From Candidatus Parcubacteria bacterium (GTDB taxonomy: Bacteria; Patescibacteriota; Minisyncoccia; Phycocordibacterales; JAKFXT01), in the NCBI GenBank assembly GCA_021414235.1, contig JAIOOV010000003.1:103560-139390 (forward strand): a stretch of 35,831 nt of DNA. The letters are read 5' to 3'. Shown piece after piece: positions 597 to 35,831 of the stretch. The position numbers were made by a program, and so were the translations under genes. Under the pieces are notes generated by a model. The model saw nothing but the letters and a program-made list of their open reading frames with translations. It made no database searches and was not told the origin of the DNA. How positions within the stretch are numbered: the stretch's first letter is position 1; every line of letters begins with the position of its first letter.

Positions 597-1514
597 ATGA
601 ACCAGGGGGATGTACTGGACAAGCACCTAATTGAAGGAAGTCTTGGTGGTGGGAGCTACGGTAAGGTTTATCGGGTTATACACCAGGATTCAGGTACGGC
701 CATGGCTCTTAAGGTTGCATCCTCAAAGGATCCGATGGACGCACTTCGTTTTCAAGGGGAAAACGAAATCATGCACAAGCTCAAGCCTCATCCTAAAGTA
801 GTACAGCCCTTTAGTAATGTTGTACAAGTTCCTCCAGACACTTTTTATTACACAATGGAACTTGTGGACACTAACCTGGCTGATTACATGAGTCTACAGG
901 GATATTTCTCACCTTCAGATTCATTTAAAATTTTTAAGGATATTTGTGAAGGTTTGGCACACGCACATCAAGCAAGTATCGCGCACCGAGATTTACATTA
1001 TGAAAATGTTCTTTTAAATATCGGTAGCGGGGTGTATGTAAAATTGACAGACTTTGGTAAGGCGAAGGATTTTGACCGCACCTGGGGTACAAACTCTTTG
1101 TCACCATGTTGGGGGTGGTTCGTCAGTCCTCCAGAAGTTTTTTTTAAAGTTTGGGATTCACCCTCGCTCCCAGAGTCTATTGCAGGAGACATGTATGCTC
1201 TTGGTATATTGCTTTTTTCACTTATTCAGGCCAAACCACTAGTTGAACTTGACACCTTAAGGCATCAAATAAAGGGTTTCCTTGGGTCCCATCCTTCACT
1301 TGATTATCTTGATATACAGGAAAAGAATAAATTGTACCGTGACTGGATTCATAGTCGATCTTTTAAAAGTAACACATTAAACGTTCGATTATCTGACACT
1401 AATGAGAACGCTAAAATTAACTCCATATTGGACCGCCTAACCCATATCGACCATTCAATTCGCTTTAAAAACATAGCTGAGTTACAGGAAGAACTAATAC
1501 TACTAGGACTATGA
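597..1514 (+). CDS. Hanks-type Ser/Thr protein kinase, kinase domain only
   Basis: Gly loop GGGSYGKVY, ALK lysine, HRDLHYEN catalytic loop, DFG, PPE (APE-like) and DMYALG. No transmembrane or sensor domain. AT-rich. Confidence 0.93.
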   Translation: MNQGDVLDKHLIEGSLGGGSYGKVYRVIHQDSGTAMALKVASSKDPMDALRFQGENEIMHKLKPHPKVVQPFSNVVQVPPDTFYYTMELVDTNLADYMSLQGYFSPSDSFKIFKDICEGLAHAHQASIAHRDLHYENVLLNIGSGVYVKLTDFGKAKDFDRTWGTNSLSPCWGWFVSPPEVFFKVWDSPSLPESIAGDMYALGILLFSLIQAKPLVELDTLRHQIKGFLGSHPSLDYLDIQEKNKLYRDWIHSRSFKSNTLNVRLSDTNENAKINSILDRLTHIDHSIRFKNIAELQEELILLGL

Positions 1515-3265
1515 TTTCTCCCACTTTAGAAAAAAAAGAATATTTTCAGACCATGCGTGACGAGACAAAGCCAAGAATGAGCTATTCAGATGCTCTTTTT
1601 GAGCTTCCCCCTATTCAAGGAGATACATTTAGGCAACAACTTGTGCGGGCTCAGTGGAATTATGTCAAAGCTCAACTAAAGAAGAATGAAAATCCAAGGA
1701 CCTTAGTCGAAACTGGAGACTTGTATCTATTGAAAAATAATTACAAAAACGCGATAGATTATTACCAAAGAAGTTTGGTACTGAATCCTGATTTCATACT
1801 GGCTTACGAAAAAATTATTCTTGCATACTCCTTACACCGCAAATATCATGAGACGATACCATATTTTAGCCGACTCCTAGAGTTAACAAACAACAGAGTA
1901 GATATCCTACGAAAATACGCTGCGCTGAGAGTTAACATATTTTTGACACAGAACGAAGGTAAAGACGACGCAATGAGAATTCTTGATGAAGCATTAAAAT
2001 TAATGCCCGAGGATGTAGAACTAATCAATACCTACGGTTTTATACTTCTTAATCATTTCCCAGAAAAACTTAGTGAAGCTAAAGACTATTTTAGTAAAGC
2101 TTTAAAAATTAATGGAGAATATATCCATTCATTAAATAATCTTGCTGTTTGTTATATTAAAGAGGGAAAATGGAAAGAAGCTGAAGAAATTCTTTCAAAA
2201 AGTATTGCCATTACTCCCCCGAATTATCCTCATACCCATCAAAACCTAGCTCTTTTGTTACTAATACAACAAAGATTTGAAGAAGCTTATTCCGTCCTTG
2301 AAAAAGCTGTTAAGAAAGGTGTCCCGATAGAAAATTCAGCCCACCATTTAATGGGGTGGATTTTGTTGGAAATGCGCGATCTGAAACGTGCGCTTGTGTG
2401 GTATGAAGAAAAGATAAAAAGTGAACCAGGGAACGAGTTGCTCTTAAATAATTTAGGCTTTTGTTATGGAGCATTTGGAGAAAAGGAAAAATCAGAAAAA
2501 TGCTTTAAACAAGCTGTTTCAATCTCTGAAGATAAGATCAGAAGAACTCGTCTCTTCGATATGCGCGCCCTTCGTGGTTATTATAATTTGGGTAGAGTAA
2601 GAGCTGCTGCGAGTGATTTCAAAGAGGTTGAGAGAATCTCAAATAGAATTTCCGAACTTAACCCGGGAGATGCTTTTTCTATTTATTTAGCAGGTGTATC
2701 AAAGGTCATTAATGAAGAATACGAAGAAGCTAAGAAATTTTTCTCTCGAACACTTGCATTAGACGAAACAATTTCAGATGTATATCCTGATTATGCCTTT
2801 ATCCATGAGTGCATCGATGGAAATGCGCAAGCGGCAGCTGATCTACTTGAAAAAGGTATTGCGTTAGGGTTCGATAAGATTCTTATTAATAACAATTTGG
2901 CTTTTGCATATATCCAATTAAACCAACTTGATAAAGCTGAGAGAATCTTGCGAAGGTACACAGAGCCTATTCCCGTCATCTTGGCTACCAGAGGATTGTT
3001 GGAAATGCGGAGAGGAAATCTTGAGGAAGCCGAAGCTCTTTACACAAAAGCCATATCTCTTTTTGAAGGTAAAAATAGAAAAATTTGCACACAAATACAT
3101 CTCTTAGAAAAAGCTCGCTATTTCTTAAAAAGAAATAGCGCCGGGAAGGCACAAAAACTACTCAGAGAAGCAAAGGATGTTATTACCTCTTACTTGACGC
3201 CCCAAATAGAACTCTTGGAGATAGAAGCTAACGAACAAGTAGCTAGCTCAAATAACCGTCATTAG
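1511..3265 (+). CDS. Tetratricopeptide-repeat protein
   Basis: Many TPR-like units (e.g. LNNLAVCYIKEGKWKEAEEILSKSIAITP, LNNLGFCYGAFGEKEKSEKCFKQA). ATGA overlap with the kinase stop. AT-rich. Confidence 0.9.
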   Translation: MISPTLEKKEYFQTMRDETKPRMSYSDALFELPPIQGDTFRQQLVRAQWNYVKAQLKKNENPRTLVETGDLYLLKNNYKNAIDYYQRSLVLNPDFILAYEKIILAYSLHRKYHETIPYFSRLLELTNNRVDILRKYAALRVNIFLTQNEGKDDAMRILDEALKLMPEDVELINTYGFILLNHFPEKLSEAKDYFSKALKINGEYIHSLNNLAVCYIKEGKWKEAEEILSKSIAITPPNYPHTHQNLALLLLIQQRFEEAYSVLEKAVKKGVPIENSAHHLMGWILLEMRDLKRALVWYEEKIKSEPGNELLLNNLGFCYGAFGEKEKSEKCFKQAVSISEDKIRRTRLFDMRALRGYYNLGRVRAAASDFKEVERISNRISELNPGDAFSIYLAGVSKVINEEYEEAKKFFSRTLALDETISDVYPDYAFIHECIDGNAQAAADLLEKGIALGFDKILINNNLAFAYIQLNQLDKAERILRRYTEPIPVILATRGLLEMRRGNLEEAEALYTKAISLFEGKNRKICTQIHLLEKARYFLKRNSAGKAQKLLREAKDVITSYLTPQIELLEIEANEQVASSNNRH

Positions 3266-3280
3266 TGTTAACAATAAACC

Positions 3281-3351
3281 TTACCCCACTGCGACGAGTT
3301 GGCCGTTGAGGACCCGGAGACGCTGGTGGAGATCACGATAACCTGACTATC
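3281..3351 (-). pseudogene. Decayed 3'-end remnant homologous to the gene at 5793-6329
   Basis: Reverse strand reads DSQVIV-ISTSVS, then after a frameshift LRVLNGQLVAVG*. The 5793-6329 product ends DGQVIV...SVGVSAYLKVVGGQLVAVE*. 8 of the last 12 residues are identical, with mostly third-position nucleotide changes. Confidence 0.7.
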
Positions 3352-3363
3352 TTACAATAACCT

Positions 3364-4497
3364 CTAGAGACCACCCTTTACTCGGTTGTGTGTTTTACAT
3401 AACATCTGACAATTTTTGGCGGTGGTTTTCCCTCCTTCGTGCCAAGGAGTAATGTGGTCAGCTTCCATTTCGGCAAATTCCCACTTCATTTTTTCACGCC
3501 TCTCCTTTTTGCAGAACGAGCATACACCGCCTTGGTGTTCGTATGCTTTCCTCTTCGTTTTGTCATCAAAATCACGCAAATTGAGGTATTTTTCCTCACG
3601 CGTAAGGATGTATGGATAAATTCCTCTCAGGCTCTGAACTTCGTCGTCATCAATCAGCTTCAAAGTCTCCTTTTCAATGTCCCTAGAGTCGTACCTGGCA
3701 TCCTTATATTTGTTGTACAAGAGCCCCCATTCTACCCCCTTCATATCTTTGCGATACGTCGTAAATGTCTTCTGCACCCAGTCAAATACTGCCTGCCAGT
3801 ATTGCCAGAGTTCTTGTGCGTTTGTATCGTCCTTGTGCTCGTTCATGTATTGCTCAATGTGATCGCTTGAAATCCATCTCAAGGCCGTTTCCAAAACCTC
3901 CTGTCGTATAGGTGAGCCACTTACTAATTTCTCTCGCCCATCTTGCACCGCGGGGGCACCCGTTTTACTAAACCATCGTTTCGCGTCGGTGAGCCACTTT
4001 CCTGTATGTTGGGCATTCAAAAGCTCTTGATCGGTCAAGGGCTTACCTGCAATATTGATCGTACGAAACCAGGCGAGTTTTTCACTTGGTGTCCCTTCGC
4101 ACACATACACCGAGAGTTCGTAGTTCAAAATCTCTTCCTGCTGATCTTTGGGTAAGCTTGTAAAAGCAAGCTCATGATCGTCGTCAAACTTAATGGGGAT
4201 GATTTTCGTCACGTATTGGCATATGGAAACAGTGCGCTGTTGCCCATCCATCAATTCGTAGTTACCATCTTCATCAACCGACCAATACATTGTGTTAAGC
4301 GGAAAACCTTGCCGCACGGTTTTAATGACCGCGTCGCGCTCCTTGTCGCCATAGATAAACTCGCGCTGAAACGCAGGACGAATGTTGAGCTTGCTTCCAT
4401 ACCCGACGACACCGTTCTCACCGTCGTCTTGGTAACCATCCACCAAATCGCGAATGGTTATTTTCGGCACATCTTTCCCGGAAAGTCTTATTTTCAT
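3364..4497 (-). CDS. DUF262 (GmrSD/ParB-like N-domain) plus C-terminal HNH endonuclease; putative restriction enzyme
   Basis: RPAFQREFIY, ELMDGQQRT and FRTINIAGKPLT match DUF262 motifs. CSFC...ADHITPWHEGGKTTAKNCQMLCKTHN matches HNH. Starts 1 nt after the methylase stop. Confidence 0.88.
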   Translation of the reverse strand: MKIRLSGKDVPKITIRDLVDGYQDDGENGVVGYGSKLNIRPAFQREFIYGDKERDAVIKTVRQGFPLNTMYWSVDEDGNYELMDGQQRTVSICQYVTKIIPIKFDDDHELAFTSLPKDQQEEILNYELSVYVCEGTPSEKLAWFRTINIAGKPLTDQELLNAQHTGKWLTDAKRWFSKTGAPAVQDGREKLVSGSPIRQEVLETALRWISSDHIEQYMNEHKDDTNAQELWQYWQAVFDWVQKTFTTYRKDMKGVEWGLLYNKYKDARYDSRDIEKETLKLIDDDEVQSLRGIYPYILTREEKYLNLRDFDDKTKRKAYEHQGGVCSFCKKERREKMKWEFAEMEADHITPWHEGGKTTAKNCQMLCKTHNRVKGGL

Positions 4498-4498
4498 A

Positions 4499-5668
4499 TT
4501 AGTTTTTTTGTCGAATGAACAGCCGCTGATAGGCAGATTGTATTACTCGACCATCCTTATTGATAAAATAGTTCTTCTTTCCGTCGTTGCCAAGTAAATT
4601 TGCATTTTCATTTGTTTTACCACCGGACGATCCAGTCCTCGTGCCATCCTGCCTCATTTCCCAGTAATCATCGTATTTCTTTGTGTCGGGAAGTTCATCA
4701 TGACAACCCCTTTGAGATGCGCCTAGTAGTTGAAACTGCTGAGGATTGTATTTATCCAGGAAAGTAATGGGCACGCCCATAGCACCGCCGTAGTCAGCTG
4801 GGATCTCCGCAACTTTGGCGACCTCAATGGCGTCGTAATTGTCATAGTGTGGATACTCTTCCGGCGTGTATTTTTTGTAGAGAGGAATATTTTGGTGGTG
4901 TTTCGCCACATCCATGTTTGTATACCAGCACGAGGTAGAAACACGCGCGATTTTTTTACCGCTTTTCTCGTCAATATGATGATACTGCGTGAAATAATTC
5001 GGAACTTCGAAAAACATGCCGACATTGAACTTAGTATAGCCGGTGCGGAATTTATTTTCTTTAATGAGTTTGAAAATTTCTTTGTAAGTAATAGCGTTCG
5101 TGTTGCCGATAATCAAAAACTTCTTGTCGTGTTCAACGAGCTGGGCAACGTACTCAATGAAGAGTGAGAACGGCGGGTTGGTAATAACGATATCTGCCTG
5201 CTTTAGGAGTTCACGGCACTCGGGTGAGCGGAAGTCTCCATCGCCCTGGAGCGGCCGCCATTCGTTTTTTTTGTTTTCTTTCAGCTTCTCGGCGATATCG
5301 CGCCGGTCAATTGCACCATCACCATTGAGATCCTCTACTTCGTTAATAAGAAAGGCGTTGGCGTTCACCTTTGGGCGGCCTTTTTTCGGCTCGAGGGTCT
5401 TGTCATCACCAAAGAGGCCGAGCTGGGTGTTAGCTATGGGCGAGGGCTTGTAGCTCGTAGCGATGAGTCGCTTGATGCCAAGTGCGTTGAAGTTTTCTGC
5501 GAAGAAGCGGAAGAAATTGCTTTCAAACGGATCGTCACAGTTGCAAAAAATGACTTTGCCTCTGAGCTGGTCGCGATAATGATTAAGCTCGTTAGCGATG
5601 TCGCTCATCTGGGTATAAAACTCATCGCTCTTTGCCTTTTTTGCTTTAGAAAGATTACTGTGTGCCAT
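4499..5668 (-). CDS. Adenine-specific DNA methyltransferase, EcoRI-methylase family
   Basis: N-terminal KAKKAKSDEFYT, CNCDDP, GDFRSPEC, motif IV TNPPFS and MGVPITFLDKYNP. Start moved from the track's 5728 to the ATG at 5668 (MAHSNL), where family similarity begins. Confidence 0.9.
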   Translation of the reverse strand: MAHSNLSKAKKAKSDEFYTQMSDIANELNHYRDQLRGKVIFCNCDDPFESNFFRFFAENFNALGIKRLIATSYKPSPIANTQLGLFGDDKTLEPKKGRPKVNANAFLINEVEDLNGDGAIDRRDIAEKLKENKKNEWRPLQGDGDFRSPECRELLKQADIVITNPPFSLFIEYVAQLVEHDKKFLIIGNTNAITYKEIFKLIKENKFRTGYTKFNVGMFFEVPNYFTQYHHIDEKSGKKIARVSTSCWYTNMDVAKHHQNIPLYKKYTPEEYPHYDNYDAIEVAKVAEIPADYGGAMGVPITFLDKYNPQQFQLLGASQRGCHDELPDTKKYDDYWEMRQDGTRTGSSGGKTNENANLLGNDGKKNYFINKDGRVIQSAYQRLFIRQKN

Positions 5669-25789: not shown

Positions 25790-26557
25790 CTAGCCGAAGC
25801 GCTCCGTGCGGATGAGGTGGGGCGCTGCGCCCTCAGCTACCAGATTACGTGAGACCGCCTCCACGAAGCCGGTAGGTCCACAGATGTAGGTCATGGGCAT
25901 CCCTCCGCTCACCTTGGCCAATACCTCTTGCAGCATCTCGCTATCCACGCGCCGCTTATACCCCACCCAGTCCGATGGCGCTTCGTCAGTGAGAGTGATG
26001 ACTACGGAGAGATTCGGATGCTTACCCATGAGCTCTTCCAGCTCCTCTTTATACAAAACCCGATCCAAGCTGCGCGCACTGATGAGAAAGACGATAGGGC
26101 GCCTTGAAGTATCGGTCAGATGATAGTGCCGCAACATGCTCATGAGCGGCACCATGCCGCTTCCTCCCCCGATGAGTACCAAGGGCCCCGGCATCTCGCT
26201 GGTCCAGATGAAATGGCCCCCAATAGGACCGCGAATCTCGATCTTCCCTCCTTCCTTTAGGTTCCAAAGATACGGCGAAACCTCTCCTTTTTCTAAAAAT
26301 TCTACACCGAGCTCGATCACCCCTTCGCTCTCAGGCGCGGAAGCAGCTGAGTAGCTGCGCTCTGCCTGATAGCCAGTAGCAGAGGTAAGCCTGATATCGT
26401 AGTGCTGCCCCGGAAGGTGTTTGACCCACTCCGGCACTTTGAAGACGAGAGACTTCACGTTCCCCGCAGCGAAACCAAAGCGGACCAAGGTTGCAGCTTG
26501 CCAGAGACGGCGCAAATCAGTCGAAGGTGTAGCGTTGTTCTTGCCAGGGGTCTCCAT
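25790..26557 (-). CDS. FAD/NAD(P)H-binding ferredoxin-reductase-type oxidoreductase
   Basis: HLPGQH, RSYS, GEVS, RGPIGGHF, LIGGGSGMVP, YICGP.GFV and RTERFG motifs. Start moved to ATG 26557. Confidence 0.92.
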   Translation of the reverse strand: METPGKNNATPSTDLRRLWQAATLVRFGFAAGNVKSLVFKVPEWVKHLPGQHYDIRLTSATGYQAERSYSAASAPESEGVIELGVEFLEKGEVSPYLWNLKEGGKIEIRGPIGGHFIWTSEMPGPLVLIGGGSGMVPLMSMLRHYHLTDTSRRPIVFLISARSLDRVLYKEELEELMGKHPNLSVVITLTDEAPSDWVGYKRRVDSEMLQEVLAKVSGGMPMTYICGPTGFVEAVSRNLVAEGAAPHLIRTERFG

Positions 26558-27116
26558 AGTTATGATAGCCGCGCACTTCCCAGAATCCGGGAACGTCGCG
26601 ATCAATGAATTCTATCCTCTTAAGCCACTTCGCGCTCTTCCAGAAGTAGAGATGCGGCACCAGAAGGCGCGCCGGGCCCCCGTGTTCTGCCGAGATATCT
26701 TCTCCTTCGTAGCGCACAGCTACCCAGGCCTTCCCATCCCGCACATCCTCTATCGGCAGGTTGGTGCTGTATCCGTCATGAGAGTACGCGATGACATGCG
26801 TCGCACTCTCGCCCACTCCTGCGCGCTTCATCAACTCATCGAGCGAGACGCCCTCCCACTCCGTATCGAACTTGGACCACTTGGTCACACAATGAATATC
26901 CTTCTTCACCTTTTCTATAGGAAGCTTCAGGAATTCTTCCCAGGAGAACGAGAGCTGGTTCTGGACCAAGCCCGTAATCTCGAGCTTCCATCCCTCGGTC
27001 GTGACTTCCGGAGTAGGCCCGAGCGAGAGCACAGGGAAATCGCGCGTCTCGTACTGCCCCGGCGGGAGACGCTTGTCGCGACCTCGCGTCGGTTCGAAAT
27101 CTTCGTTGATGATCAT
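26517..27116 (-). CDS. Sulfite-oxidase-like molybdopterin oxidoreductase (YuiH-type, no signal peptide)
   Basis: RLPPGQY, DIHCVTKWS (Mo-ligand Cys), HGGPARL, YFWKSAKWL, GFWE..GYH..GDPW.EQRY. Confidence 0.93.
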   Translation of the reverse strand: MIINEDFEPTRGRDKRLPPGQYETRDFPVLSLGPTPEVTTEGWKLEITGLVQNQLSFSWEEFLKLPIEKVKKDIHCVTKWSKFDTEWEGVSLDELMKRAGVGESATHVIAYSHDGYSTNLPIEDVRDGKAWVAVRYEGEDISAEHGGPARLLVPHLYFWKSAKWLKRIEFIDRDVPGFWEVRGYHNYGDPWQEQRYTFD

Positions 27117-27700
27117 TAGTCGCTGAAGGTACGGAAGGTAGAGCGGATGGAGACTCCATCCATGCCGATGACGAGCGGGTTCTTCTTAAGGTCGAAATCC
27201 CGGCTTGCGGTATCCCCATGGAGTATCACGTAATAGGGGTGATTCGCCTCGGTAGAGCGGAGGAGGGATATCTCGCCGAGATGCATCCCCTCTTCGAATC
27301 GCGCCGCACCGAGTACGTTGCCAGGGGTACCATCACGATCTTCGTAGACCGCTACCCAGCCAGGCTGCGAGAGTGTGAGCATAGTCACCTCCACAATGGG
27401 GCCCGCCGGCTGATCATTCACTACGATGACATCCCCGTCCACGGAAATCGGTTCCGGCCGATCATCAGACTCGGAAAGCGGCGAGACGTTCGAGCCAGTC
27501 TCGAGAGGCGCGGAGGTGTTTTCATTCTCGACCATAGGGGTCTCCGAGGCTACCTCACGGCTGCAGGCGATGAAGCTCCCTTCCGTGGTACAGCGCACAC
27601 CCATGGCGTAAGCAACGAGGGCCACGAGTCCAAAGACGACTGCCACCGTACCGAATGTGGCAACCGTCTTCTGCGAAACCGTAAGCGAATTCCAGTTCAT
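27116..27700 (-). CDS. Membrane-anchored beta-rich surface protein
   Basis: N-terminal TM helix, a Cys pair, an acidic linker and a beta domain (VVNDQPAG.IVEV..LTLSQPGWVAVYED...VLGA). TAATG overlap with the next gene. Confidence 0.75.
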   Translation of the reverse strand: MNWNSLTVSQKTVATFGTVAVVFGLVALVAYAMGVRCTTEGSFIACSREVASETPMVENENTSAPLETGSNVSPLSESDDRPEPISVDGDVIVVNDQPAGPIVEVTMLTLSQPGWVAVYEDRDGTPGNVLGAARFEEGMHLGEISLLRSTEANHPYYVILHGDTASRDFDLKKNPLVIGMDGVSIRSTFRTFSD

Positions 27701-27732
27701 ATAAGTTCAGTTTACTACCCCCCTCCAACCCG

Positions 27733-29676
27733 TCAAACCCACGGCTCCCACGGCTCCGGATGAGCATAGATAGCCACCACTTCCCCGCCGAGGATCTCTA
27801 CCGGAGAGGCAGACTGCCGCTCGATCTTGGGGCGGATATCGTGAAGTCCCACGAAGCGGTGCGGCTGATAGCTATCATACGTACCCTGCTGCTCTATGTT
27901 ATTAAAATCATGCGCAAAGTACGGCTCTCCCCAGAACTCATAGATGCGGCGCATCTCCCGCTCCGGGTCCGTGACTAGCTTGTTGTAATCAATGAAGAGG
28001 AGCCGGTCCATGTAGCCGCGCTGCACTGCCTCCTTAGTGGCGTTGTAAGCAATACCGACGGGGCCACCGGGGCCCGCAAAATACTGTGCGCGACTCGCTA
28101 CGTTCGAACCTGCACCCAGCGCTTCATCCGCACCCGTAAGCTCGAGAGGATCCCTATTCCGGAGCTTCTCGAAGGAAGCGAGGATCTCCACCACCGGGCG
28201 CACTGGCACCAGGATCTTGACCTTCCGTCCAAGAAGCTCCTCGAGGAGCGGGATGTGCGAGATCCAGCCACGGCTCTTGTCCACCACTACCGGCTTCCCT
28301 GCAGGAGCATGGTATGAGTTGAGTGCGGAGAGGAGCACGGCGCGCTTGGCTTCCTTGTTAGGAGACTCCATGTGCGAGCCGATCTTGTCCCAGTTGGAAT
28401 AGATACCGGTGAGAATATCGACGAGACCAGAAACCGGCGCACCATGGAGGCGCGGGTTCTGAGAAAGGAGGCTCGTGAGCATGGTAGAGCCGGAGCGCGG
28501 AAGTCCCGCAATGAAGTGGAGCGTATAGGGAGCCGCCACCAGAAGAGAGGAAGAAGGTCCGGGAGCAGCAGGCTCTTTAGGTAGGTAGGAGATATCAGGC
28601 GCGGGCGTGGGAGCAACTGTCGGCATCACCGTCTCAGAGGAAGCGGCACCCACCCGTTCTGAAACCGCTCTGAATACTCTCTGGAGCGGAGCACTCCAAT
28701 CACCGAAGGCTTCCTGTCGGAAGACGCGCACGGATTCGTACCACGGGGAACGCTCGCCAGGCAGCGCCCACATATAGTACGGAAGGATGGGCACGATGAC
28801 CCAGGTCTCCTTGCCCATCCCTGCAGCAAGGTGCGTGATGGAGGTGCAGGAGGTAATGACCAGATCGAGATTAGCAATCGCTCCCGCCGTATCCTCCCAG
28901 GTCTCGAGCTTATCCTTAAGATCAACAACTTCCGGTGGCAACTCGCGCAGATCAGCGTCTCGCTGGAGGCTGTACACTTTCACTCCCGGGATTTGGCTTA
29001 GCGCGATGAGCGGAGAGGGATCAAAGCGACGGTACTGCTCATGCTCAAACTGAGGGTTGCCCGACCAACGGATGCCGATCTTGAGCTCGGGACCGTTGAT
29101 GATCCCCTTCCACTTTTCTGCATAGGCTGGATCAGCGGAGAGATACGACTTACCCGAAAGAGTGCCATAAGTAAGACCAAGGAGTCGCGCTGCGGACATC
29201 GCCGGGACCCAAGAATCGTGTTTGGTATTGCACACATCCTTGTGTTCGATCACCTCTGCTACTCCCTTCACCCGAGAGAAGAGCGGCGCAAGCCCTTTAT
29301 CGCAGGCGACGATGACGCGCGCTCCGCGCTCGGCGAGAAGCGTTGCGAAGCGCACGTTGATCATCTCGTCCCCGAGGCCGCCTTCGCTACGGAGCAGGAT
29401 AGTCTTGCCTGCAGTACCGAGATCCGGATTCCAGATGGGTGTACCGCACGGAAGCGCGGGAGAGCCGAATACTTTTTCAAAGCGTCCGCGATCAAGAAGC
29501 GCCATTCCTCCTTGGAGATCGCCCTGCTGCAGGAGGTGCCAGCCACGGTTGAAGGCTACCCGATTGTTATGCGGCATAGTCTTCTCAAGATGCTGAGCGA
29601 TCTTCCAACCGGTCTCGAAATCCCCGCGCAGATTGGCGCGAAGCTGGGCGACAATGGTCATCTCATGAGGCTCCAT
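27733..29676 (-). CDS. Fusion: short TPR-like helices, GT-B (GT9-like) glycosyltransferase-like domain, Pro-rich linker, PAPS-dependent sulfotransferase
   Basis: LLRSEGGLGDEMINVRF, IGIRWSGNP, WEDTAGAIANLDLVITSCTSITHLAAGMGKETW, WYESVRVFRQ; linker PTVAPTPAP; 5'-PSB loop FIAGLPRSGSTML, VVDKSRGW, ILASFEKL. Start uncertain (TTG 29697, ATG 29676 or ATG 29661). Confidence 0.85.
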   Translation of the reverse strand: MEPHEMTIVAQLRANLRGDFETGWKIAQHLEKTMPHNNRVAFNRGWHLLQQGDLQGGMALLDRGRFEKVFGSPALPCGTPIWNPDLGTAGKTILLRSEGGLGDEMINVRFATLLAERGARVIVACDKGLAPLFSRVKGVAEVIEHKDVCNTKHDSWVPAMSAARLLGLTYGTLSGKSYLSADPAYAEKWKGIINGPELKIGIRWSGNPQFEHEQYRRFDPSPLIALSQIPGVKVYSLQRDADLRELPPEVVDLKDKLETWEDTAGAIANLDLVITSCTSITHLAAGMGKETWVIVPILPYYMWALPGERSPWYESVRVFRQEAFGDWSAPLQRVFRAVSERVGAASSETVMPTVAPTPAPDISYLPKEPAAPGPSSSLLVAAPYTLHFIAGLPRSGSTMLTSLLSQNPRLHGAPVSGLVDILTGIYSNWDKIGSHMESPNKEAKRAVLLSALNSYHAPAGKPVVVDKSRGWISHIPLLEELLGRKVKILVPVRPVVEILASFEKLRNRDPLELTGADEALGAGSNVASRAQYFAGPGGPVGIAYNATKEAVQRGYMDRLLFIDYNKLVTDPEREMRRIYEFWGEPYFAHDFNNIEQQGTYDSYQPHRFVGLHDIRPKIERQSASPVEILGGEVVAIYAHPEPWEPWV

Positions 29677-29747
29677 AGGCAGGAGCAATGGTAACAAAGA
29701 GACCCCCCTCAGGGAACTTGCGGATTTCAGACGTTACGGTATGAAAA

Positions 29748-30140
29748 CTAGCTGCTATTAAGCATCAAAAGATGGGCCCGCCAGGTGGTGCCGCCATCAG
29801 TAGTGGTAAAAGAGAGCACGTCGAGACCGGAGGACGTAAGAGAGGGCGCGGAGCCCGTAAGCCAGGTGGTACCAGAAGGCCAGGCCACCGAGACGGCACC
29901 ACCATTGGTGAGGAGCAGGGTGAGCGTACCAGTCTTCCCCGAGACAGGAGGGTTGGTGATGGAGAGGGTGAGGTTGCCGCTCGCTGTGATCGAAACTACG
30001 TTCCCCAGAGAGAAGTCCATCGCCTGTGAACCCGAGACGGAGCCGCGGGCATTCACTGTAGCGTATTTGACCTTGAGCACCGCGTTGTCGACACGTGCGC
30101 CCCCCAGATCAAATCGGGCAGCAGAGAGTTTGATCGCCAT
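29748..30140 (-). CDS. Small beta-rich protein resembling phage tail-fibre-associated domains
   Basis: TNPPVSG..GTLTLLLTNGG...VAWPSGTTWLTGSAPSLTSSGLDVLSFTTTDGGTTW is a pattern I recognise from phage structural genes. GGAGGT RBS. Confidence 0.65.
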   Translation of the reverse strand: MAIKLSAARFDLGGARVDNAVLKVKYATVNARGSVSGSQAMDFSLGNVVSITASGNLTLSITNPPVSGKTGTLTLLLTNGGAVSVAWPSGTTWLTGSAPSLTSSGLDVLSFTTTDGGTTWRAHLLMLNSS

Positions 30141-30154
30141 TACCTCCGATTATA

Positions 30155-30418
30155 TCAGAACGCGTCCTTATCGATGATAAAAATGGCGTTGCCGTCGCGA
30201 TCCGCGAAGGTGAGGGACTTATTAGTCTCCGTCACCTTGAAATTATTAAAAAGCGCCTCATGGAGCACCTTCTCTCCACTGAAGAGCGAGGTGATGGGAC
30301 CTGCGAACTTACCCAAGGTGAACGCCGCCCCGCCCACAGCCAGGAACTTGAGTACGTTACGGCGAGAGACGTCTATCTTAGACTCGCCTTTGAATAGTGA
30401 AAGAAATTTCTCCTGCAT
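30155..30418 (-). CDS. Small protein with a twin-arginine (Tat) signal
   Basis: SRRNVLK followed by the h-region FLAVGGAAFTLG; short beta-rich mature part. Starts 6 nt after the tatA stop. Confidence 0.8.
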   Translation of the reverse strand: MQEKFLSLFKGESKIDVSRRNVLKFLAVGGAAFTLGKFAGPITSLFSGEKVLHEALFNNFKVTETNKSLTFADRDGNAIFIIDKDAF

Positions 30419-30424
30419 ATGGCT

Positions 30425-30613
30425 CTAGCTCTTGTGGCCAGAAGACTTCTCCGAGTCACGCAGTTCGTCCTCCATCTCCTTCTTCCCCTTCTTGAACTCC
30501 CCGGCCACCTTGCCGAGAGAGCGAGCGAACTCCACCACCTTGCCGCTTCCGAAGAAGAGAAGCGCAAAGACGACGAGGATGACGAGAACTTCAGGTATGC
30601 CTAATCCGAACAT
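30425..30613 (-). CDS. tatA: Twin-arginine translocase TatA
   Basis: MFGLGIPEVLVILVVFALLFFG hinge, then amphipathic helix ARSLGKVAGEFKKG. Confidence 0.93.
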   Translation of the reverse strand: MFGLGIPEVLVILVVFALLFFGSGKVVEFARSLGKVAGEFKKGKKEMEDELRDSEKSSGHKS

Positions 30614-30663
30614 AAAAGTATTACAGCTAGTCTAGCAATTACCCTCCCAGTGTACCACCCACC

Positions 30664-31446
30664 CTATCCCCTACCAACCCGCCTCCTCTCTATGTAATTT
30701 GCCACCAAGAGACCCCCTCCATAGAGCGCCGCCATAGGGAGAGAGAGCATGAGCATGGTGACCCCGCTCCCATCCGGCGTGACGAAGGCGGCAAAGACCA
30801 AGAACCCCAAGAGAGCATGTCGCCACCACGCTCTCCAGAATCCTGCCTGGACCAGGCCGATCCAAGCGAGGAAGACCATCATCACCGGGAGGAGGAACAT
30901 GAGCCCGACCGAGATCATGAGGAAGGCAATAGTAGAGAGGAACTCATCCACCAGGAAGTAGGGCTGTGCGCCGAGTTCCGGAGTAAAGGAGTACAGAATC
31001 TTAAAAGTCGCCGGGATGAGGATATAGTAGGCAAAGGCGGCACCCCCGAGGAAGAGGAGCATCGCGGGCAGCAGTATGACCAAGGCGAAGCGCCGCTCGC
31101 TCTGATGGAGAGCCGGAGAAAGGTAGGCGAGGATGCGATACAGCAGGATCGGAAGAGTGAGAATGAAGGACGCGAGGAGTGCCACCATTACCCGCGTCGC
31201 AAACCCCGCAAAAGGACTGAGCGAGATGAGACGCACTTCCTCGGGAAGGAGATCCTGGCGGATCTGGGCAAATATCTCCACCGCAGCCGGGGTACTCTGG
31301 AGGGAAGGTACCGGAAGGAGCGTGCCCCACATCTGGGTATCCTGGAAACCGAAGGAGAAGAGGAACAGGGCCAAGAATGCAAAAAGGCAGAGCCAGCCGA
31401 TTAACGCCCTAACAAGCAAGGAAAGCTCCCTCAGTACCCCATCCAT
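30664..31446 (-). CDS. tatC: Twin-arginine translocase TatC
   Basis: Six TM helices; LYRILAYLSPALHQSERR loop (Glu retained), FLLPV, WRHA and AAFVTPDG motifs. Adjacent to tatA. Confidence 0.92.
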   Translation of the reverse strand: MDGVLRELSLLVRALIGWLCLFAFLALFLFSFGFQDTQMWGTLLPVPSLQSTPAAVEIFAQIRQDLLPEEVRLISLSPFAGFATRVMVALLASFILTLPILLYRILAYLSPALHQSERRFALVILLPAMLLFLGGAAFAYYILIPATFKILYSFTPELGAQPYFLVDEFLSTIAFLMISVGLMFLLPVMMVFLAWIGLVQAGFWRAWWRHALLGFLVFAAFVTPDGSGVTMLMLSLPMAALYGGGLLVANYIERRRVGRG

Positions 31447-31486
31447 GATGACCGCATACTACTACACTCCCCTCCCTACACCACCC

Positions 31487-34400
31487 CTAGTTTCCCTGGT
31501 CAAAGATCAGGAGGAGGCTTGAAGAAGCATTGTAGAGACCGAGTTCGTTGACCGAGATCTGGCGGAAGCTGAAGCCGTTGCCGAAGGTGACCGCGTTCTC
31601 TACGAAGATGTTACCCGCAGTCGAGGTGGCGGTGAGCGCCGGACAAGAGCCGCCGTCACAGATCCAGAGGTTCTCAGTGACCGCATAGATATCTCCGCCC
31701 GCAGCAGACATGGTCAGGTCGCCCGTACTATCCACCGTGAGCTCAGAGTAGAGAGAGGCGGATTTGGTGAGGCGCAACTGAGGAGCAGCGTTGGCTTCAA
31801 AAACATCGAGTCTGGTAGCAGGGGCGGTAAGACCGAGGCCCACCTTGCCCGCAGGATTGATGATGAAGGAAGTGGCAGTAGAAGAGCCGACTACAAACTG
31901 GTTCGTATCCCCGGCTATTGGGTTCACTGCGAGTTTGGCCCACGGAGTGGTTGTGCCGATACCTACGTGCGCCACATCTACTCCGCTGATACCAGCGTAG
32001 TACATAACGAGCGCCGGAGATGAGCCGATACCGAGGTTGAAGCGAGAGCCAACGGCGGCATAGGCATTCCGTATATTCAAAGTAGTCGCGCCCGAGCGGT
32101 TGTAATCAATATCCGAGTATTCGTTACCCGACGTCTGGCCAAGACGAATGGTGTTACCAGAAGTATTACCAGAATAAATATGGAGGAGTGCGTCAGGCAC
32201 GCCGTTGCCGAGAGCCAGGCCACTACCGATAGCGGTACTTGTAGCAAAGAAGTTATACGCACCCGTATCAGAGGCATAGAACGAGTATGGGGTATTGGTC
32301 TGCGTACCGGTAGTAATATCCCCCACATGTACACCGTACGTATTAGTAATGGTGCCCGCGTTAGACAGGGTATTGACACGCACTCCGTAGGCAGAGGTGA
32401 TAAGATCATTCACCCCCAAGTTGGCTATAGCGGCGCGCACACCTTCCGCAGTAGTCGTGGTCGCACTCTGCAATCCTCCCGAAACACCGTTTGTCGCAGA
32501 ACCAAAAACTCCTAAAAGGGTGGTGGCGGTGGCATTCCCACGATTCAGAGACGTGCCAGTGATTGCAATCGCAGCTGTCAACGCACCAGTTCCGTTATGA
32601 ATGGATTGGAACATACCACCCCGGAGAGAGCCGACAGCAGTCGTATTGGTCGACGGGGTAAACATATCCAATAGAAGAGCCGCATTAGCCGGCGTTGCGG
32701 TGCTGGCAAAATCATTTGACACAGCGATATATTTCGGAGCCTGCAGATACGTAGTATCCGTCAAGGAATAGCTCTCGTAATTCATAACAGAGCGCGTCGT
32801 GCCCTGAGAGTTAATTATCGGCGTAGAAGAGGAGAAGAAGGTGGCCAAAGAAGTGGAAGCAGATACCGTCAGGATGCCACTAGGAGAAGTCGTACCAATA
32901 CCCACCTTCCCTGCGTTATCGATAATAAAGCTGGTTCGGGTCGAAGAACCCACCACAAACTGGTTGGTATCCCCTGCTACTGGGTTTACCGCGAGCTTTG
33001 CCCAGGGAGTGGTGGAGCCAATACCCACAAGACTACCGGAGAGGAAGATGGCGGAGGTGCCAGCCGCCACGTTAGTACCGCTGAAGTACGCCAGTTGACC
33101 AGTCGTACCAGTGAGCGAGGAGCCACCGCCGATACACGATCCATCCAAGCCACGGAAGCAGCCTGCCGCAAGCTGGATGCCGTTTGCGAAGGTGGAGGTG
33201 GCGCCGGTCACATTAAGCGCGGTGGTCTGGATACCTGCGGAGAAGGTGGAAGTAGCTGATGCAACCGAGGTGATTACGCCAGTGTTAGAAATACTAAAGA
33301 GAGAGGTGGTGGCGCCCGCAGTAGAAGAGGCTACGTTAAAGAGAAGAGTGTTGGTGTCCCCATTGAGACCGTGCACAGAGAGCTTGGCTAAAGGAGAAGA
33401 ACTACCCACACCTGTGTTCCCTTGTACGATAAGGCCATTAGTAGGAGGAGTAACAGCAGAGAAGATAGATCCTATAGAAGCACCGGCATACAAATAAAGT
33501 TTGCCCCACGCCGTACCAGAGGCACCCAGGTCATAGCCATTAGTGGTATTAGGAACAAGTGGAGCAGAGAAGCGTAAGTGCGACGGGCCACTAATTAGAA
33601 CCTGGTTCGTATTTGAACCAGCGATGATAAGCGAGGATGTGTTGCCCGGAAAGGCGAAGGTTGCTGTACCTGTATTTGAAATGTTGAACAGTGAAGTAGT
33701 TGCACTTGCAGTAGAGGAGGCAACATCAAATAGAAGCGTATTAGTGTCTCCGTTATTCGCGTGTACCCCAAACTTAGCAAGAGGAGTAGTAGAACCGACG
33801 CCAACATTACCGCCTGTCGGCTGTAATACGAGCGCCAGAGCGGTACCAGCACTATTTACATAAGTAGACTTAAAGTAAGAGTAGGAGGTAGCAGTGGAAC
33901 CAGAATCATAGGTACCCAGATTTGCAGCTGTCCCCGTAAGTCCGTTTGAAATCACCAAACCGCTAGTTATGGAGCCAGACACAGCCGGAATACCACTGCT
34001 GTTTATGTTGAATTTACCAAAGAGAGAGGTGAGGCCAATACCCACCTTACCAGCGTTATCAATCAAGAAACTCGTTGCAGTAGACGACCCGACTACAAAC
34101 TGGTTGGTGTCTCCTGCTACTGGGTTCACTGCGAGTTTGGCCCAAGGAGTGGTGGAACCGATACCGAAAGAACCACTGGCCCTAAGGACCATTTGGTCTG
34201 TTCCCCCTATTCGGAAATTAATTTGCGAGTTTAGGGGTCTGTTGATGTACAAAGTCCCATCGGCAGGGCCGCTATAAAAGTTAGCTTGGGTAGAAGAGAG
34301 AGAGCCGTTTAGAGATATGGCACCATACGTAGTACCGCCACCCCATTCTCCCAGAAGCACGCTTCCAGTATTAGAGCCTTGCACTGCCAATTTTGCAGGG

Positions 34401-35831
34401 GGCGAAGTAGTTCCGATACCCACGTTACCAGCAGAGTCAATGAGGAACGCCGTCGCCGTCGAAGAGCCGACGACAAACTGATTGGTATCTCCCGCTACTG
34501 GGTTCACGGCGAGCTTGGCCCAAGGGGTGGTAGTACCTACACCAAAGAGACCTGTGGCCGCCATATAGTTGAGGCCGTTAGTGTCCGAAGTGCCGAATAT
34601 GCGGAAGTTGCGAGTCTTGGTATCGATATTATTAGTCGAACCATACGCACCTAATTCCAAGTAACTATTAGCGGCGGAAGGAGTACCCAAGAGAAGGCGG
34701 GGGCCGCTCGTGAGAGAGGTGGTGAAGGTATTGGTAGTGTCTCCGACACGTAGTACTCCGTTGTAGATATCGACCAGAGCCCCAGGAGTGCTAGTGCCAA
34801 CGCCGATGTTCCCCACGTTATTGATGACAAAAAGCGAGGTTGTCGCGCTTGCCGTAGAAGAAGCGACCTCAAAAAGCTTGGTATTAGTCTCGCCATTATT
34901 AGCATGAACAGCGAGCTTAGCCCCAGGAGTAGTAGAGCCGATACCCAACCTACCGGTTATCGCATCCCAAAAGAGATTCGAGGAGGTTGCTATAGCCGAG
35001 GAACCATTCCCGAACGGAATGAACCCACTCGCAAGCGAAGCCCAGCCAGTGCCACCATTGGCCACAGGAAGAACCCCGGTCACCTGCGAGGCAAGATTAA
35101 GGACACCTGAGATTGTAGAGAGAGTCGTAGAAGCAACCCACGATGGAATACCATTTGAGAGAGCGAGAACAAAGCCGTTAGTGGAGGCCGCTAATTTTGA
35201 AATTGCGTTAGTGCCGGATCCATAGAAGGTGTCGCCCGTGGTTACTGTAGTAAGTCCTGTACCTCCACTCGTCACACCCAGAGTGCCGCTGATATTCGCA
35301 AGCGTAGTAGTGGACTGCCAAGTTGGTATGCCACCAACAAGAGCCAGCACCTGGCCATTGGTACCAGCAGAAGTAGTAGCAATAGCTCCAGTACCATTAC
35401 CTATCAGAATTGAATTAGCCTGGAAGGCACCCCAGCCAGTACCTCCGTTCGAAGTTGAGAGGATGCCCGCCACTTGGGAAGCGACATTCAGAGTACCGGA
35501 AATCGTTGCCAGAGTCGTAGAAGCAACCCACGATGGAATACCATTTGAGAGAGCGAGAACAAAGCCGTTCGTACTCGAAGCTATCCTACTGAGAGTATTC
35601 GGGGAAGAAGCGTACGTAATATCTCCCGGAGTGTAGGAGGTGAGCCCGGTACCTCCGCTCGTTACGCCCAGCGTCCCGCTAATATTCGCAAGCGTAGTAG
35701 TGGACTGCCAGGTAGGCACTCCCCCGACGAGCGTGAGTACCTGGCCATTAGTACCAGCAGACGTGGTGGCTACCGCACCCGTGCCGTTACCGAGGATGAC
35801 CGTGTTCGCCTGCAGATTTGCCCAGCCCGTG
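31487..35831 (-). CDS. Giant S/T/G/N-rich fibre- or adhesin-like repeat protein (>1448 aa; 5' end outside the window)
   Basis: The frame stays open past the track's start at 35719 to the window edge (TGWANLQANTVILGNGTG...). Recurrent VGIGTTxP motifs and modular repeats. Confidence 0.9.
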   Translation of the reverse strand, partial: TGWANLQANTVILGNGTGAVATTSAGTNGQVLTLVGGVPTWQSTTTLANISGTLGVTSGGTGLTSYTPGDITYASSPNTLSRIASSTNGFVLALSNGIPSWVASTTLATISGTLNVASQVAGILSTSNGGTGWGAFQANSILIGNGTGAIATTSAGTNGQVLALVGGIPTWQSTTTLANISGTLGVTSGGTGLTTVTTGDTFYGSGTNAISKLAASTNGFVLALSNGIPSWVASTTLSTISGVLNLASQVTGVLPVANGGTGWASLASGFIPFGNGSSAIATSSNLFWDAITGRLGIGSTTPGAKLAVHANNGETNTKLFEVASSTASATTSLFVINNVGNIGVGTSTPGALVDIYNGVLRVGDTTNTFTTSLTSGPRLLLGTPSAANSYLELGAYGSTNNIDTKTRNFRIFGTSDTNGLNYMAATGLFGVGTTTPWAKLAVNPVAGDTNQFVVGSSTATAFLIDSAGNVGIGTTSPPAKLAVQGSNTGSVLLGEWGGGTTYGAISLNGSLSSTQANFYSGPADGTLYINRPLNSQINFRIGGTDQMVLRASGSFGIGSTTPWAKLAVNPVAGDTNQFVVGSSTATSFLIDNAGKVGIGLTSLFGKFNINSSGIPAVSGSITSGLVISNGLTGTAANLGTYDSGSTATSYSYFKSTYVNSAGTALALVLQPTGGNVGVGSTTPLAKFGVHANNGDTNTLLFDVASSTASATTSLFNISNTGTATFAFPGNTSSLIIAGSNTNQVLISGPSHLRFSAPLVPNTTNGYDLGASGTAWGKLYLYAGASIGSIFSAVTPPTNGLIVQGNTGVGSSSPLAKLSVHGLNGDTNTLLFNVASSTAGATTSLFSISNTGVITSVASATSTFSAGIQTTALNVTGATSTFANGIQLAAGCFRGLDGSCIGGGSSLTGTTGQLAYFSGTNVAAGTSAIFLSGSLVGIGSTTPWAKLAVNPVAGDTNQFVVGSSTRTSFIIDNAGKVGIGTTSPSGILTVSASTSLATFFSSSTPIINSQGTTRSVMNYESYSLTDTTYLQAPKYIAVSNDFASTATPANAALLLDMFTPSTNTTAVGSLRGGMFQSIHNGTGALTAAIAITGTSLNRGNATATTLLGVFGSATNGVSGGLQSATTTTAEGVRAAIANLGVNDLITSAYGVRVNTLSNAGTITNTYGVHVGDITTGTQTNTPYSFYASDTGAYNFFATSTAIGSGLALGNGVPDALLHIYSGNTSGNTIRLGQTSGNEYSDIDYNRSGATTLNIRNAYAAVGSRFNLGIGSSPALVMYYAGISGVDVAHVGIGTTTPWAKLAVNPIAGDTNQFVVGSSTATSFIINPAGKVGLGLTAPATRLDVFEANAAPQLRLTKSASLYSELTVDSTGDLTMSAAGGDIYAVTENLWICDGGSCPALTATSTAGNIFVENAVTFGNGFSFRQISVNELGLYNASSSLLLIFDQGN
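31830..34545 (-). repeat. Four dispersed ~47-aa modules (GxGxTTPWAKLAVNPxAGDTNQFVVGSSTxTxFxIxxAGxVGIG)
   Basis: Copies at approximately 34400-34543, 34034-34165, 32882-33025 and 31830-31963. Confidence 0.9.
33280..34950 (-). repeat. Three dispersed ~43-aa modules (GSxxPxAKxxVHxxNGxTNTxLFxVASSTAxATTSLFxIxNxG)
   Basis: Copies at approximately 34815-34950, 33670-33800 and 33280-33410. Confidence 0.88.
35041..35831 (-). repeat. Two tandem 390-nt (130-aa) coding repeats plus the start of a third
   Basis: The TGW anchor CCCAGCC recurs at 35821, 35431 and 35041. 35511-35569 equals 35121-35179 (59 nt identical); 35682-35710 equals 35292-35320 (29 nt identical). Confidence 0.92.

Follow-up and report, generated by a model that had tools for sequence, protein, structure and literature searches.

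A five-gene cassette joining a surface fibre, a TatAC translocase and a phage-like protein in Paceibacteria-type bacteria

In the window studied here, a stretch of 35,831 nt from Candidatus Parcubacteria bacterium (GCA_021414235.1, contig JAIOOV010000003.1, forward positions 103,560-139,390), we identified one copy of a five-gene cassette of Paceibacteria-type bacteria of the candidate phyla radiation (CPR). The cassette encodes, in this order, a fibre-like surface protein (giant in the window), the TatC and TatA components of a twin-arginine translocation (Tat) system, a small protein with a twin-arginine signal (the mini-protein) and a signal-less protein resembling phage tail fibres (the tip protein). 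These genes had been proposed as a unit in an earlier reading of the window (the original prediction), and they indeed form a real conserved unit, with linkage that holds in both search directions and in more than 100 loci. We regard the identities of the genes, the order of the five, their bidirectional conservation and the Sec-type targeting of the fibre homologues as established. Within the cassette, the Tat motif is restricted to the mini-protein, and the sequences suggest that the mini-protein, not the fibre, is most likely the cognate Tat substrate.

Results

The cassette is conserved across CPR lineages

The cassette was surveyed from two sides. On the tatC side, a TatC alignment was scanned against one genome per species, yielding about 46 CPR loci, with archaeal loci ranking next. 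The CPR names in this survey were Paceibacterota, Zambryski-, Niyogi-, Nomura-, Moranii-, Andersen-, Colwell- and Nealsonbacteria, plus metagenome-assembled genomes (MAGs) labelled Saccharibacteria; genes were counted with hidden Markov models (HMMs) made from the window proteins, and 43 of the loci had enough flanking sequence for the count of upstream fibC genes. On the fibre side, an alignment of the C-terminal domain of the fibre (fibC) was scanned over metagenome contigs, where it retrieved 74 loci; in 67 of these the contig extends at least 300 nt past the gene. Loci on relatives' contigs are labelled with L-numbers (L002, L012, L161 and so on).

A gene ending in fibC lies directly upstream of tatC in 30 of the 43 CPR species loci, tatA is followed by a mini-protein gene in 30 of 36, as it is in the majority of metagenome loci, and a tip gene is present in 26 of 31. 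Searched from the other side, tatC is found downstream of fibC in 51 of the 67 metagenome loci, mostly 0-130 nt past the stop codon. The 16 tatC-less loci keep the neck of fibC and have the last ~30 residues swapped for a fused extra domain. Because fibres with the neck but without the terminal motif have no tatC downstream, it is the terminal motif, not the fibre as such, that goes with Tat. Neither fibC nor the mini-protein family was found when about 35 archaeal tatC loci were scanned by HMM.

The closest homologues of the mini-protein fall into four clusters, whose contigs keep the order fibre, tatC, tatA, mini-protein, (130-aa protein) and a large fusion enzyme described below. Outside the immediate clade TatC identity drops to 43-46%, and both order and linkage hold down to 37-46% TatC identity in either search direction. 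In L012-L014, for example, the order is giant protein, tatC, tatA, a 79-aa twin-arginine protein and a stand-alone sulfotransferase, and in L038 and L041 the genes upstream of tatC encode miniature proteins made up of just a transmembrane (TM) helix and the terminal motif.

We found no published description of the cassette; full-text searches turned up just one related statement, namely that Paceibacteria, Microgenomatia and Saccharimonadia possess TatA and TatC (PMC9166423). The assumption of the original prediction that Tat is uncommon in CPR does not hold given that report and the at least 46 species-level CPR genomes in which we found tatC. What is new is three uncharacterised families (the fibC end domain, the mini-protein and the proteins with the N-terminal motif of the tip), their fixed association with Tat in CPR, and the split layout of fibre and tip.

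A twin-arginine mini-protein is encoded beside tatC and tatA

The tatC gene (30664-31446, minus strand, as for all cassette genes of the window) encodes 260 aa matching PF00902 (E 3.4e-45) and TIGR00945 (138.2 bits against a cut-off of 132.7), and tatA (30425-30613, 62 aa) matches PF02416 (E 3e-12). A second TatA/B gene was not seen within the window, and the translocase appears to be of the ordinary minimal TatAC type. On the window TatC, the archaeal model TIGR01912 outscores the bacterial TIGR00945 (147 vs 138 bits), and the nearest TatC relatives beyond the CPR clade are archaeal (L057-L094, 30-37% identity, from a pattern-based scan that may be biased); these comparisons hint at an archaeal affinity of the CPR TatC clade.

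The mini-protein (30155-30418, 87 aa) matches Pfam TAT_signal with 24.6 bits (cut-off 22.7) and TIGR01409 with 23 bits (cut-off 16.7). It has an SRRNVLKF signal, a Gly-rich h-region (SRRNVLKF..GGAAFTLGK) followed by a Lys, and the beta motif FNNFKVTETNKSLTFADRDGNAIFIIDKDAF at its C-terminus; an AxA site is lacking. In 37 homologues R20 is invariant, and R19, L23 and K24 are conserved at 90% or more. The family shows 'GPLFS' after the Gly-rich h-region and Lys, lacks a small-x-small cleavage site, and in cassettes is 70-95 aa long with a mature part of ~45 residues. A profile search of 1.84 billion representatives retrieved 221 clusters at E<=1e-10, all of 59-154 aa; the match always reaches the C-terminus, and in all 221 the family is stand-alone. 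The mature part had no match in Pfam, NCBIfam or PHROG, and the protein gave a weak match to Pfam TM_PetC, the Rieske anchor (21.9 bits).

No other protein with an RRxFLK signal is encoded in the 36-kb window. Likewise, 684 kb of sequence flanking CPR tatC genes contained no other real RRxFLK-signal gene, except variant mini-proteins in L039 and L054. These variants (L039:1646-1963, L054:11388-11657, and small genes of L030, L053 and L146) combine an RRKFLK signal with another mature part, 'W.EP.SPPPGGNV.TPLNVG..QTKQG'. The L054 variant ends in '..RLKIPVGTDLFD', an ending shared by very short tip-like proteins elsewhere.

Two consensus tails, 'F.NF[KR]V.E..K.L.[IF]YD..GEEIF.IDK' and 'F.N.FK..Q.....E....YD......L.FDE', correspond to the fibre end and the mini-protein across lineages. 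Aligned with hhalign, the C-terminal motif of the mini-protein and the last motif of the fibre match end to end over 28 columns (score 24.8, E 0.0012), a faint but consistent likeness.

Fibre homologues carry Sec-type signals or a membrane anchor

The 3' part of the fibre gene occupies 31487-35830; it is open at its 5' end, with 1447 codons seen, which comprise 26% S+T and 14% G. The visible part is built of repeat units of the form 'GIGTTSP...KLAV...GDTNQFVVGSST', with nine units of the 'G[IVL]G[ST]T[TS]P' type and four copies of 'NP[VI]AGDTNQFVVGSST'. Searches against Pfam, NCBIfam and PHROGs gave no significant match (the best PHROG, a family of unknown function, reached E 0.0018), and neither the Pfam nor the PHROG scan detected a Peptidase_S74 chaperone domain.

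The fibC domain comprises the last ~113 aa of the fibre (31490-31828; HMM match of 154 bits). It consists of a neck, QLRLS...ENLWxCxGGxC...GNxxVE, with two invariant cysteines (C114 and C119 of alignment A2), followed by a terminal three-strand motif of ~30 residues, FGNGFSFRQISVNELGLYNASSSLLLIFDQGN (31490-31579), whose presence tracks that of tatC. The invariance of the two cysteines suggests an extracytoplasmic disulfide. An AlphaFold2 (AF2) model of the domain is all-beta, with a predicted local distance difference test score (pLDDT) of 79-95 and ~90 in the last three strands; a Foldseek search of this model against the PDB gave no fold match (best E 0.067, TM-score 0.19).

Since the end of the window cuts the fibre gene, and its contig in Logan breaks off still further inside the gene, we read the N-terminus from the orthologue in L002, whose mini-protein is 91% identical to that of the window. 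This 2249-aa protein starts with an HTH_17 domain (E 1.4e-9), followed by one TM helix at about residue 110 and then the repeat region. Proteins ending in fibC range from 233 to more than 2200 aa. Among 44 complete, non-redundant ones, 35 carry K-rich, RR-less Sec-type signals (usually with an AxA site), 3 have the helix-turn-helix (HTH) and TM arrangement, 2 show an incidental RR and 4 are unclear. A twin arginine is thus not conserved in the fibres, and the proposal of the original prediction that the fibre folds in the cytoplasm and leaves it through Tat is not sustained: relatives have a normal Sec signal, which the original prediction itself had named as evidence against it, and the orthologue of the window fibre has HTH_17 and TM, so that the fibre is most likely not Tat cargo. 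We considered 'SRRLVRA' before the TM helix of the L002 fibre as an internal Tat signal and rejected it, as there is no twin arginine at this place in L016 and L020; 'SRRL' is better read as ordinary positive-inside charge.

The combination of HTH_17 (excisionase/MerR-like) and a single TM helix opens the giant fibres of the window's lineage and two others (L002:2194-2700, L008:5194-5600, L016 and L020). A DNA-binding-type fold at the cytoplasmic end of a surface fibre is odd. Some fibres have further domains: in the tatC-less fibres L143 and L162, what follows the fibC neck is '...YRRxSCPxGMIEVPP...GFCVDKYEAK', resembling the fold of formylglycine-generating enzyme/sulfatase-modifying factor, and L147, L153 and other fibres have a domain with '...RRSIILTAAGAIVPT...YYVLDFD...WQWTMPDSY'.

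The tip protein resembles phage tail fibres

The tip gene (29748-30140, 130 aa) begins 14 nt past the mini-protein gene. Its product matches phrog_7760 and phrog_9017, both annotated 'tail fiber protein' in PHROG (E 1e-11), and is 31-43% identical to annotated tail-fibre genes of ten phage records (tblastn). This agrees with its earlier description as a phage-like beta protein, and we refer to it as a phage tail-fibre-tip-like beta domain.

The window protein starts with a docking-type N-terminal motif, MAIKLSAARFDLGGARVDN, of a kind that spans ~25 residues and has the consensus MTIKISRNRLDMG... / MTIKISRNRLDMGELPIN. Scanned with an HMM of this motif, 59 of 67 modules showed such a gene downstream of the mini-protein gene; a 'MTMRISATRIDMDD' variant occurs in three others. 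Tip proteins have no signal peptide; 36 of 66 contain a CxxH...CxxC element, often before the N-terminal motif. Their bodies vary, including the p130 beta domain of the window protein, ~200-aa domains and RCC1 propellers (L173, L170). By single linkage these C-terminal bodies form only 4 groups, and we therefore make no claim of a hypervariable tip.

The fibre in L161, which has no tatC or mini-protein gene nearby, ends in the neck followed by a covalently attached p130-type domain. This domain matches the stand-alone tip of L127 (E 7e-12) and the 130-aa protein of the window (E 0.008). As the two parts are fused here and split elsewhere, the p130-type domain can be placed at the C-terminal end of the fibre.

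Modifying enzymes are recurrent accessories

Downstream of the tip gene, the window encodes a 654-aa fusion protein (27733-29697; the start codon is uncertain, with a TTG at 29697 and ATG codons lying 21 and 36 nt further on as the candidates). Its C-terminal half (27745-28521) is a sulfotransferase domain of the 3'-phosphoadenosine-5'-phosphosulfate (PAPS) type, matching PF13469 (Sulfotransfer_3; E 2.7e-14, residues 395-593) and PF00685 (Sulfotransfer_1; E 4.7e-11), and its GLPRSGST loop corresponds in alignment to the 5'-phosphosulfate-binding (PSB) loop of TPST structures. The N-terminal half (28543-29697) comprises tetratricopeptide repeat (TPR)-like helices and a predicted GT-B domain like that of glycosyltransferase (GT) family 9. 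It has no Pfam match of its own, PF01075 included. In its family, which counts at least 900 proteins, some of them stand-alone and others joined to a sulfotransferase, methyltransferase or GT25 domain, Glyco_transf_9 (PF01075) is matched by 7 of 47 members (best 6e-6), and several match TPR models. The AF2 model of the half (pLDDT 91, predicted TM-score (pTM) 0.90) found WaaF as its closest structure in Foldseek (7e-8), then 3tov, WaaC and TibC, down to E 1e-5 and at TM-scores of ~0.5. Since the model is nearest to GT9 structures, the label 'GT-like' given in the original prediction is justified at the level of the fold.

The occurrence of a GT9-like/sulfotransferase enzyme near the cassette recurs in several lineages. 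Two of three sampled fusion homologues, which come from other Patescibacteria genomes and share 53-59% identity, are each found 5-6 kb downstream of a complete cassette, neighboured by GT41-like, GT2, GT8 and methyltransferase genes, and GT2 and methyltransferase genes recur downstream in further modules. The sulfotransferase is missing from most cassettes: among the tatC-centred loci it occurs only in the clade of the window and in that of L012, where a stand-alone sulfotransferase gene comes after the mini-protein gene. The glycosyl- and sulfo-modifying enzymes are accordingly recurrent accessories and not part of the core.

Discussion

We propose, with about even confidence in the model as a whole, that TatAC inserts the mini-protein, that the tip is its probable hitch-hiker, and that the parts join at the fibre end outside the cell. 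The fibre would enter the membrane by its Sec-type signal or, in the lineage of the window, by the HTH_17 and TM anchor. TatAC would insert the mini-protein, with the uncleaved signal serving as a membrane anchor and the beta motif facing outward. Since the ectodomain of the mini-protein seems too small to need Tat alone, the mini-protein probably forms a cytoplasmic complex with the folded, signal-less tip and takes it along through the translocase. Once outside, the tip, the mini-protein or both may dock on the homologous motif at the C-terminal end of the fibre, which would give a two-part attachment fibre. In the lineage of the window, the cytoplasmic TPR/GT9-like and sulfotransferase enzyme most likely glycosylates and sulfates one of the cassette proteins before export.

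Several observations weigh against this model. The mini-protein tail resembles the fibre end only weakly (hhalign probability 19%), and while column-shuffled controls reach the hhalign score in just 1 of 200 and 0 of 200 trials, column shuffling also breaks the periodicity of the beta strands, which flatters the observed score. The placement of the tip relies on a single fused-versus-split case, as 1 of the 16 fused fibres has a domain homologous to stand-alone tips, and the Zn-ribbon-like element of many tips fits a cytoplasmic location equally. There is no adjacent tip gene in modules L004, L012, L030 and L044, and no upstream fibC gene in L018, L025, L034 and L053; the invariant core is therefore only tatC, tatA and the mini-protein gene. 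The third fusion homologue, in L171, sits amid RCC1 and phage-like proteins with no Tat genes. In that locus (L171:841-7956) the fusion homologue adjoins RCC1-propeller proteins with Pfam Phage_phiTE_241_C and several methyltransferases, and the 8-kb flanks contain no Tat genes.

The absence of a signal-peptidase site from the mini-protein and its weak TM_PetC match (21.9 bits) would also be expected if it were nothing but a Tat-inserted, Rieske-like signal-anchor whose beta motif tethers the Sec-exported fibre, the tip being either not exported or exported by another route. Such an arrangement would account for the resemblance of the mini-protein tail to the end of the fibre, for the modules without an adjacent tip gene, and for the fact that most fibC proteins of ~340 aa are made with a cleavable signal and lack any further anchor. 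However, it leaves unexplained why an ectodomain of ~45 residues needs Tat instead of Sec/YidC, and why a signal-less phage-tip-like gene follows the mini-protein gene in so many modules (59 of 67). The fibre in the window's lineage is, moreover, already TM-anchored at its N-terminus, and the L161 fusion places a p130-type domain at the fibre end. We consider a purely anchoring role unlikely on this balance, though not remote.

The tight linkage of the fibre gene to tatC could be taken to mean, as the original prediction had it, that folding, trimerisation, glycosylation and sulfation of the giant fibre all take place in the cytoplasm, and that a dedicated Tat then exports the entire fibre, the mini-protein being its signal partner. 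The mini-protein motif, resembling the fibre end, could in that case bind the fibre, and the cytoplasmic modifying enzymes encoded nearby would fit as well. Cytoplasmically glycosylated serine-rich adhesins use their own accessory Sec system, and the proposed dedicated Tat could be an analogue of it. Against this stand the targeting signals of the fibre homologues, which are of Sec type (35 of 44) or HTH and TM, with a conserved twin arginine in none; the suggested extracytoplasmic disulfide; the lack of a sulfotransferase in most cassettes; and the size of a 2249-aa chain, and even more of its trimer. To our knowledge, no Tat cargo approaches such a chain in size. We thus regard export of the fibre through Tat as improbable. 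More improbable still, to the point where we give it very little credence, is that these are the tail-fibre genes of a phage or prophage, or that they surround a housekeeping Tat by chance, without any linking function. The resemblance of the 130-aa protein to phage tail fibres, the Bro-N and Fic/RhuM genes near L010 and the name 'viral-cat' of one MAG point that way, but among 2.9 million viral contigs (IMG/VR) there was one weak fibC match, for which reason we rejected a phage origin of the locus as such. The flanks here and in relatives contain housekeeping genes (L28, M50 protease, MutY, RNase J, HisRS, MreB), and order and linkage persist over the range of TatC divergence given above. With one weak viral match and housekeeping flanks, the module is therefore chromosomal.

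Returning to the model of a Tat-inserted mini-protein that carries the tip, a bolder extension can be put forward tentatively, and we hold it with more doubt than conviction: Paceibacteria-type CPR may keep Tat largely in order to equip their own fibres with exchangeable receptor-binding tips of phage origin, with the mini-protein acting as a Tat signal in trans. The beta motif of the mini-protein would mimic the fibre end and capture the folded tip via the N-terminal strand of the tip, which in some lineages might be glycosylated or sulfated before export. The tip would then be handed to the same docking motif on the Sec-exported fibre, in the manner of donor-strand exchange in chaperone-usher pili.

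The closest parallel in operon structure is phoD-tatAd-tatCd of Bacillus subtilis, which has likewise a TatA and TatC pair, no tatB seen in the locus and a co-operonic canonical twin-arginine protein. Here, however, the mature part of the signal-bearing protein amounts to only ~45 residues and contains no enzyme domain, and the operon adds a Sec-targeted fibre and a signal-less phage-like protein. Tat hitch-hiking is established for PaoABC of E. coli (PMC4273604), and a small Tat-signal 'hitchhiker' subunit serves the FAD-glucose dehydrogenase of Burkholderia (PMC6719666). In these cases, as in the small and large subunits of hydrogenases, the signal resides on a small partner and the neighbouring gene is signal-less, as in the cassette; the known cases are cofactor-bearing redox enzymes, whereas the presumed cargo here would be a phage tail-fibre-tip-like binding protein.

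Phage tail fibres and the mosaic adhesive trimer (MAT) fibres of Bdellovibrio share with the fibre of the window a long S/T/G-rich, beta-rich stalk with 'GIGTTSP..KL.V' repeats, and share with the cassette a conserved stalk, an exchangeable distal domain and a phage-related tip domain. In contrast to them, the cassette has no Peptidase_S74 and no PHROG or Pfam match for the stalk, its distal domain is a separate gene product, the end motif of its fibre is tied to a Tat operon, and it is chromosomal. The loci of serine-rich repeat adhesins with accessory Sec (SecA2/SecY2), and the heptosylation of autotransporter adhesins by TibC/Aah, are similar in combining an S/T-rich adhesin-like protein, cytoplasmic glycosyltransferases and a private translocase, and the GT domain here is predicted by its model to have the fold of TibC. 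They differ in that the translocase here is TatAC and not SecA2/Y2 and the fibre has an ordinary Sec-type signal; no SecA/SecY-like genes were found in the locus or in the cassettes of relatives.

CPR bacteria live attached to host cells, but the assembly of the structures by which they attach is poorly understood. The cassette ties three undescribed protein families to a Tat translocase in dozens of species, and offers a testable reason why genome-reduced bacteria without a respiratory chain retain Tat. Should the proposed mechanism be true, it would extend Tat hitch-hiking from redox enzymes to the assembly of adhesins. The cassette also singles out the likeliest protein determinants of host recognition, and the mini-protein provides a simple marker for finding the system.

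Neighbouring genes and additional observations

The seven co-oriented genes of the original prediction are all present on the minus strand between 27116 and 35831. The gaps between them, put there at about 6-70 nt, measure 40, 50, 6, 14, 50 and 32 nt; in line with the claim that no strong terminator hairpin interrupts the run, we found a single weak terminator-like hairpin between genes, at 29717-29702. The last of the seven encodes a 194-aa membrane-anchored DUF7282 protein with an N-terminal TM helix (27116-27700); it was counted as a member of the unit, but is kept only in the closest relatives and lies outside the conserved cassette. Nor does the co-oriented run end at 27116, as had been supposed: it continues into genes for a SUOX-like molybdenum cofactor (Moco) protein, an FNR-like reductase and a MutY-like protein.

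In the segment next to it (window 25790-27116, minus strand), the SUOX-like gene encodes a 199-aa SUOX-fold molybdopterin protein without a signal and overlaps the DUF7282 stop by 1 nt; an overlapping gene for an FNR-like FAD/NAD reductase comes right after it. A Moco enzyme is unusual for a CPR genome. Close homologues, likewise without signals, are encoded immediately upstream of tatC in four archaeal loci (L057, L069, L072 and L090; E 1e-53 to 1e-56). We considered the SUOX-like protein as a possible Tat hitch-hiker and set it aside, as it has no signal and is missing from other cassettes.

A polyA metatranscriptome of the same sample (10 Mb) had no sequence words in common with the locus. 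At window positions 1001-5000 the G+C content falls to 0.36-0.45, as compared to 0.52-0.62 elsewhere in the window, and this part may be foreign or recently acquired DNA. Finally, six loci (L047, L048, L051, L056, L060 and L074) come from MAGs labelled 'uncultured Bdellovibrionales' or 'Gammaproteobacteria', and their cassette is nearly identical to that of Moraniibacteriota MAGs; these bins are probably mislabelled, transfer being the less likely explanation.

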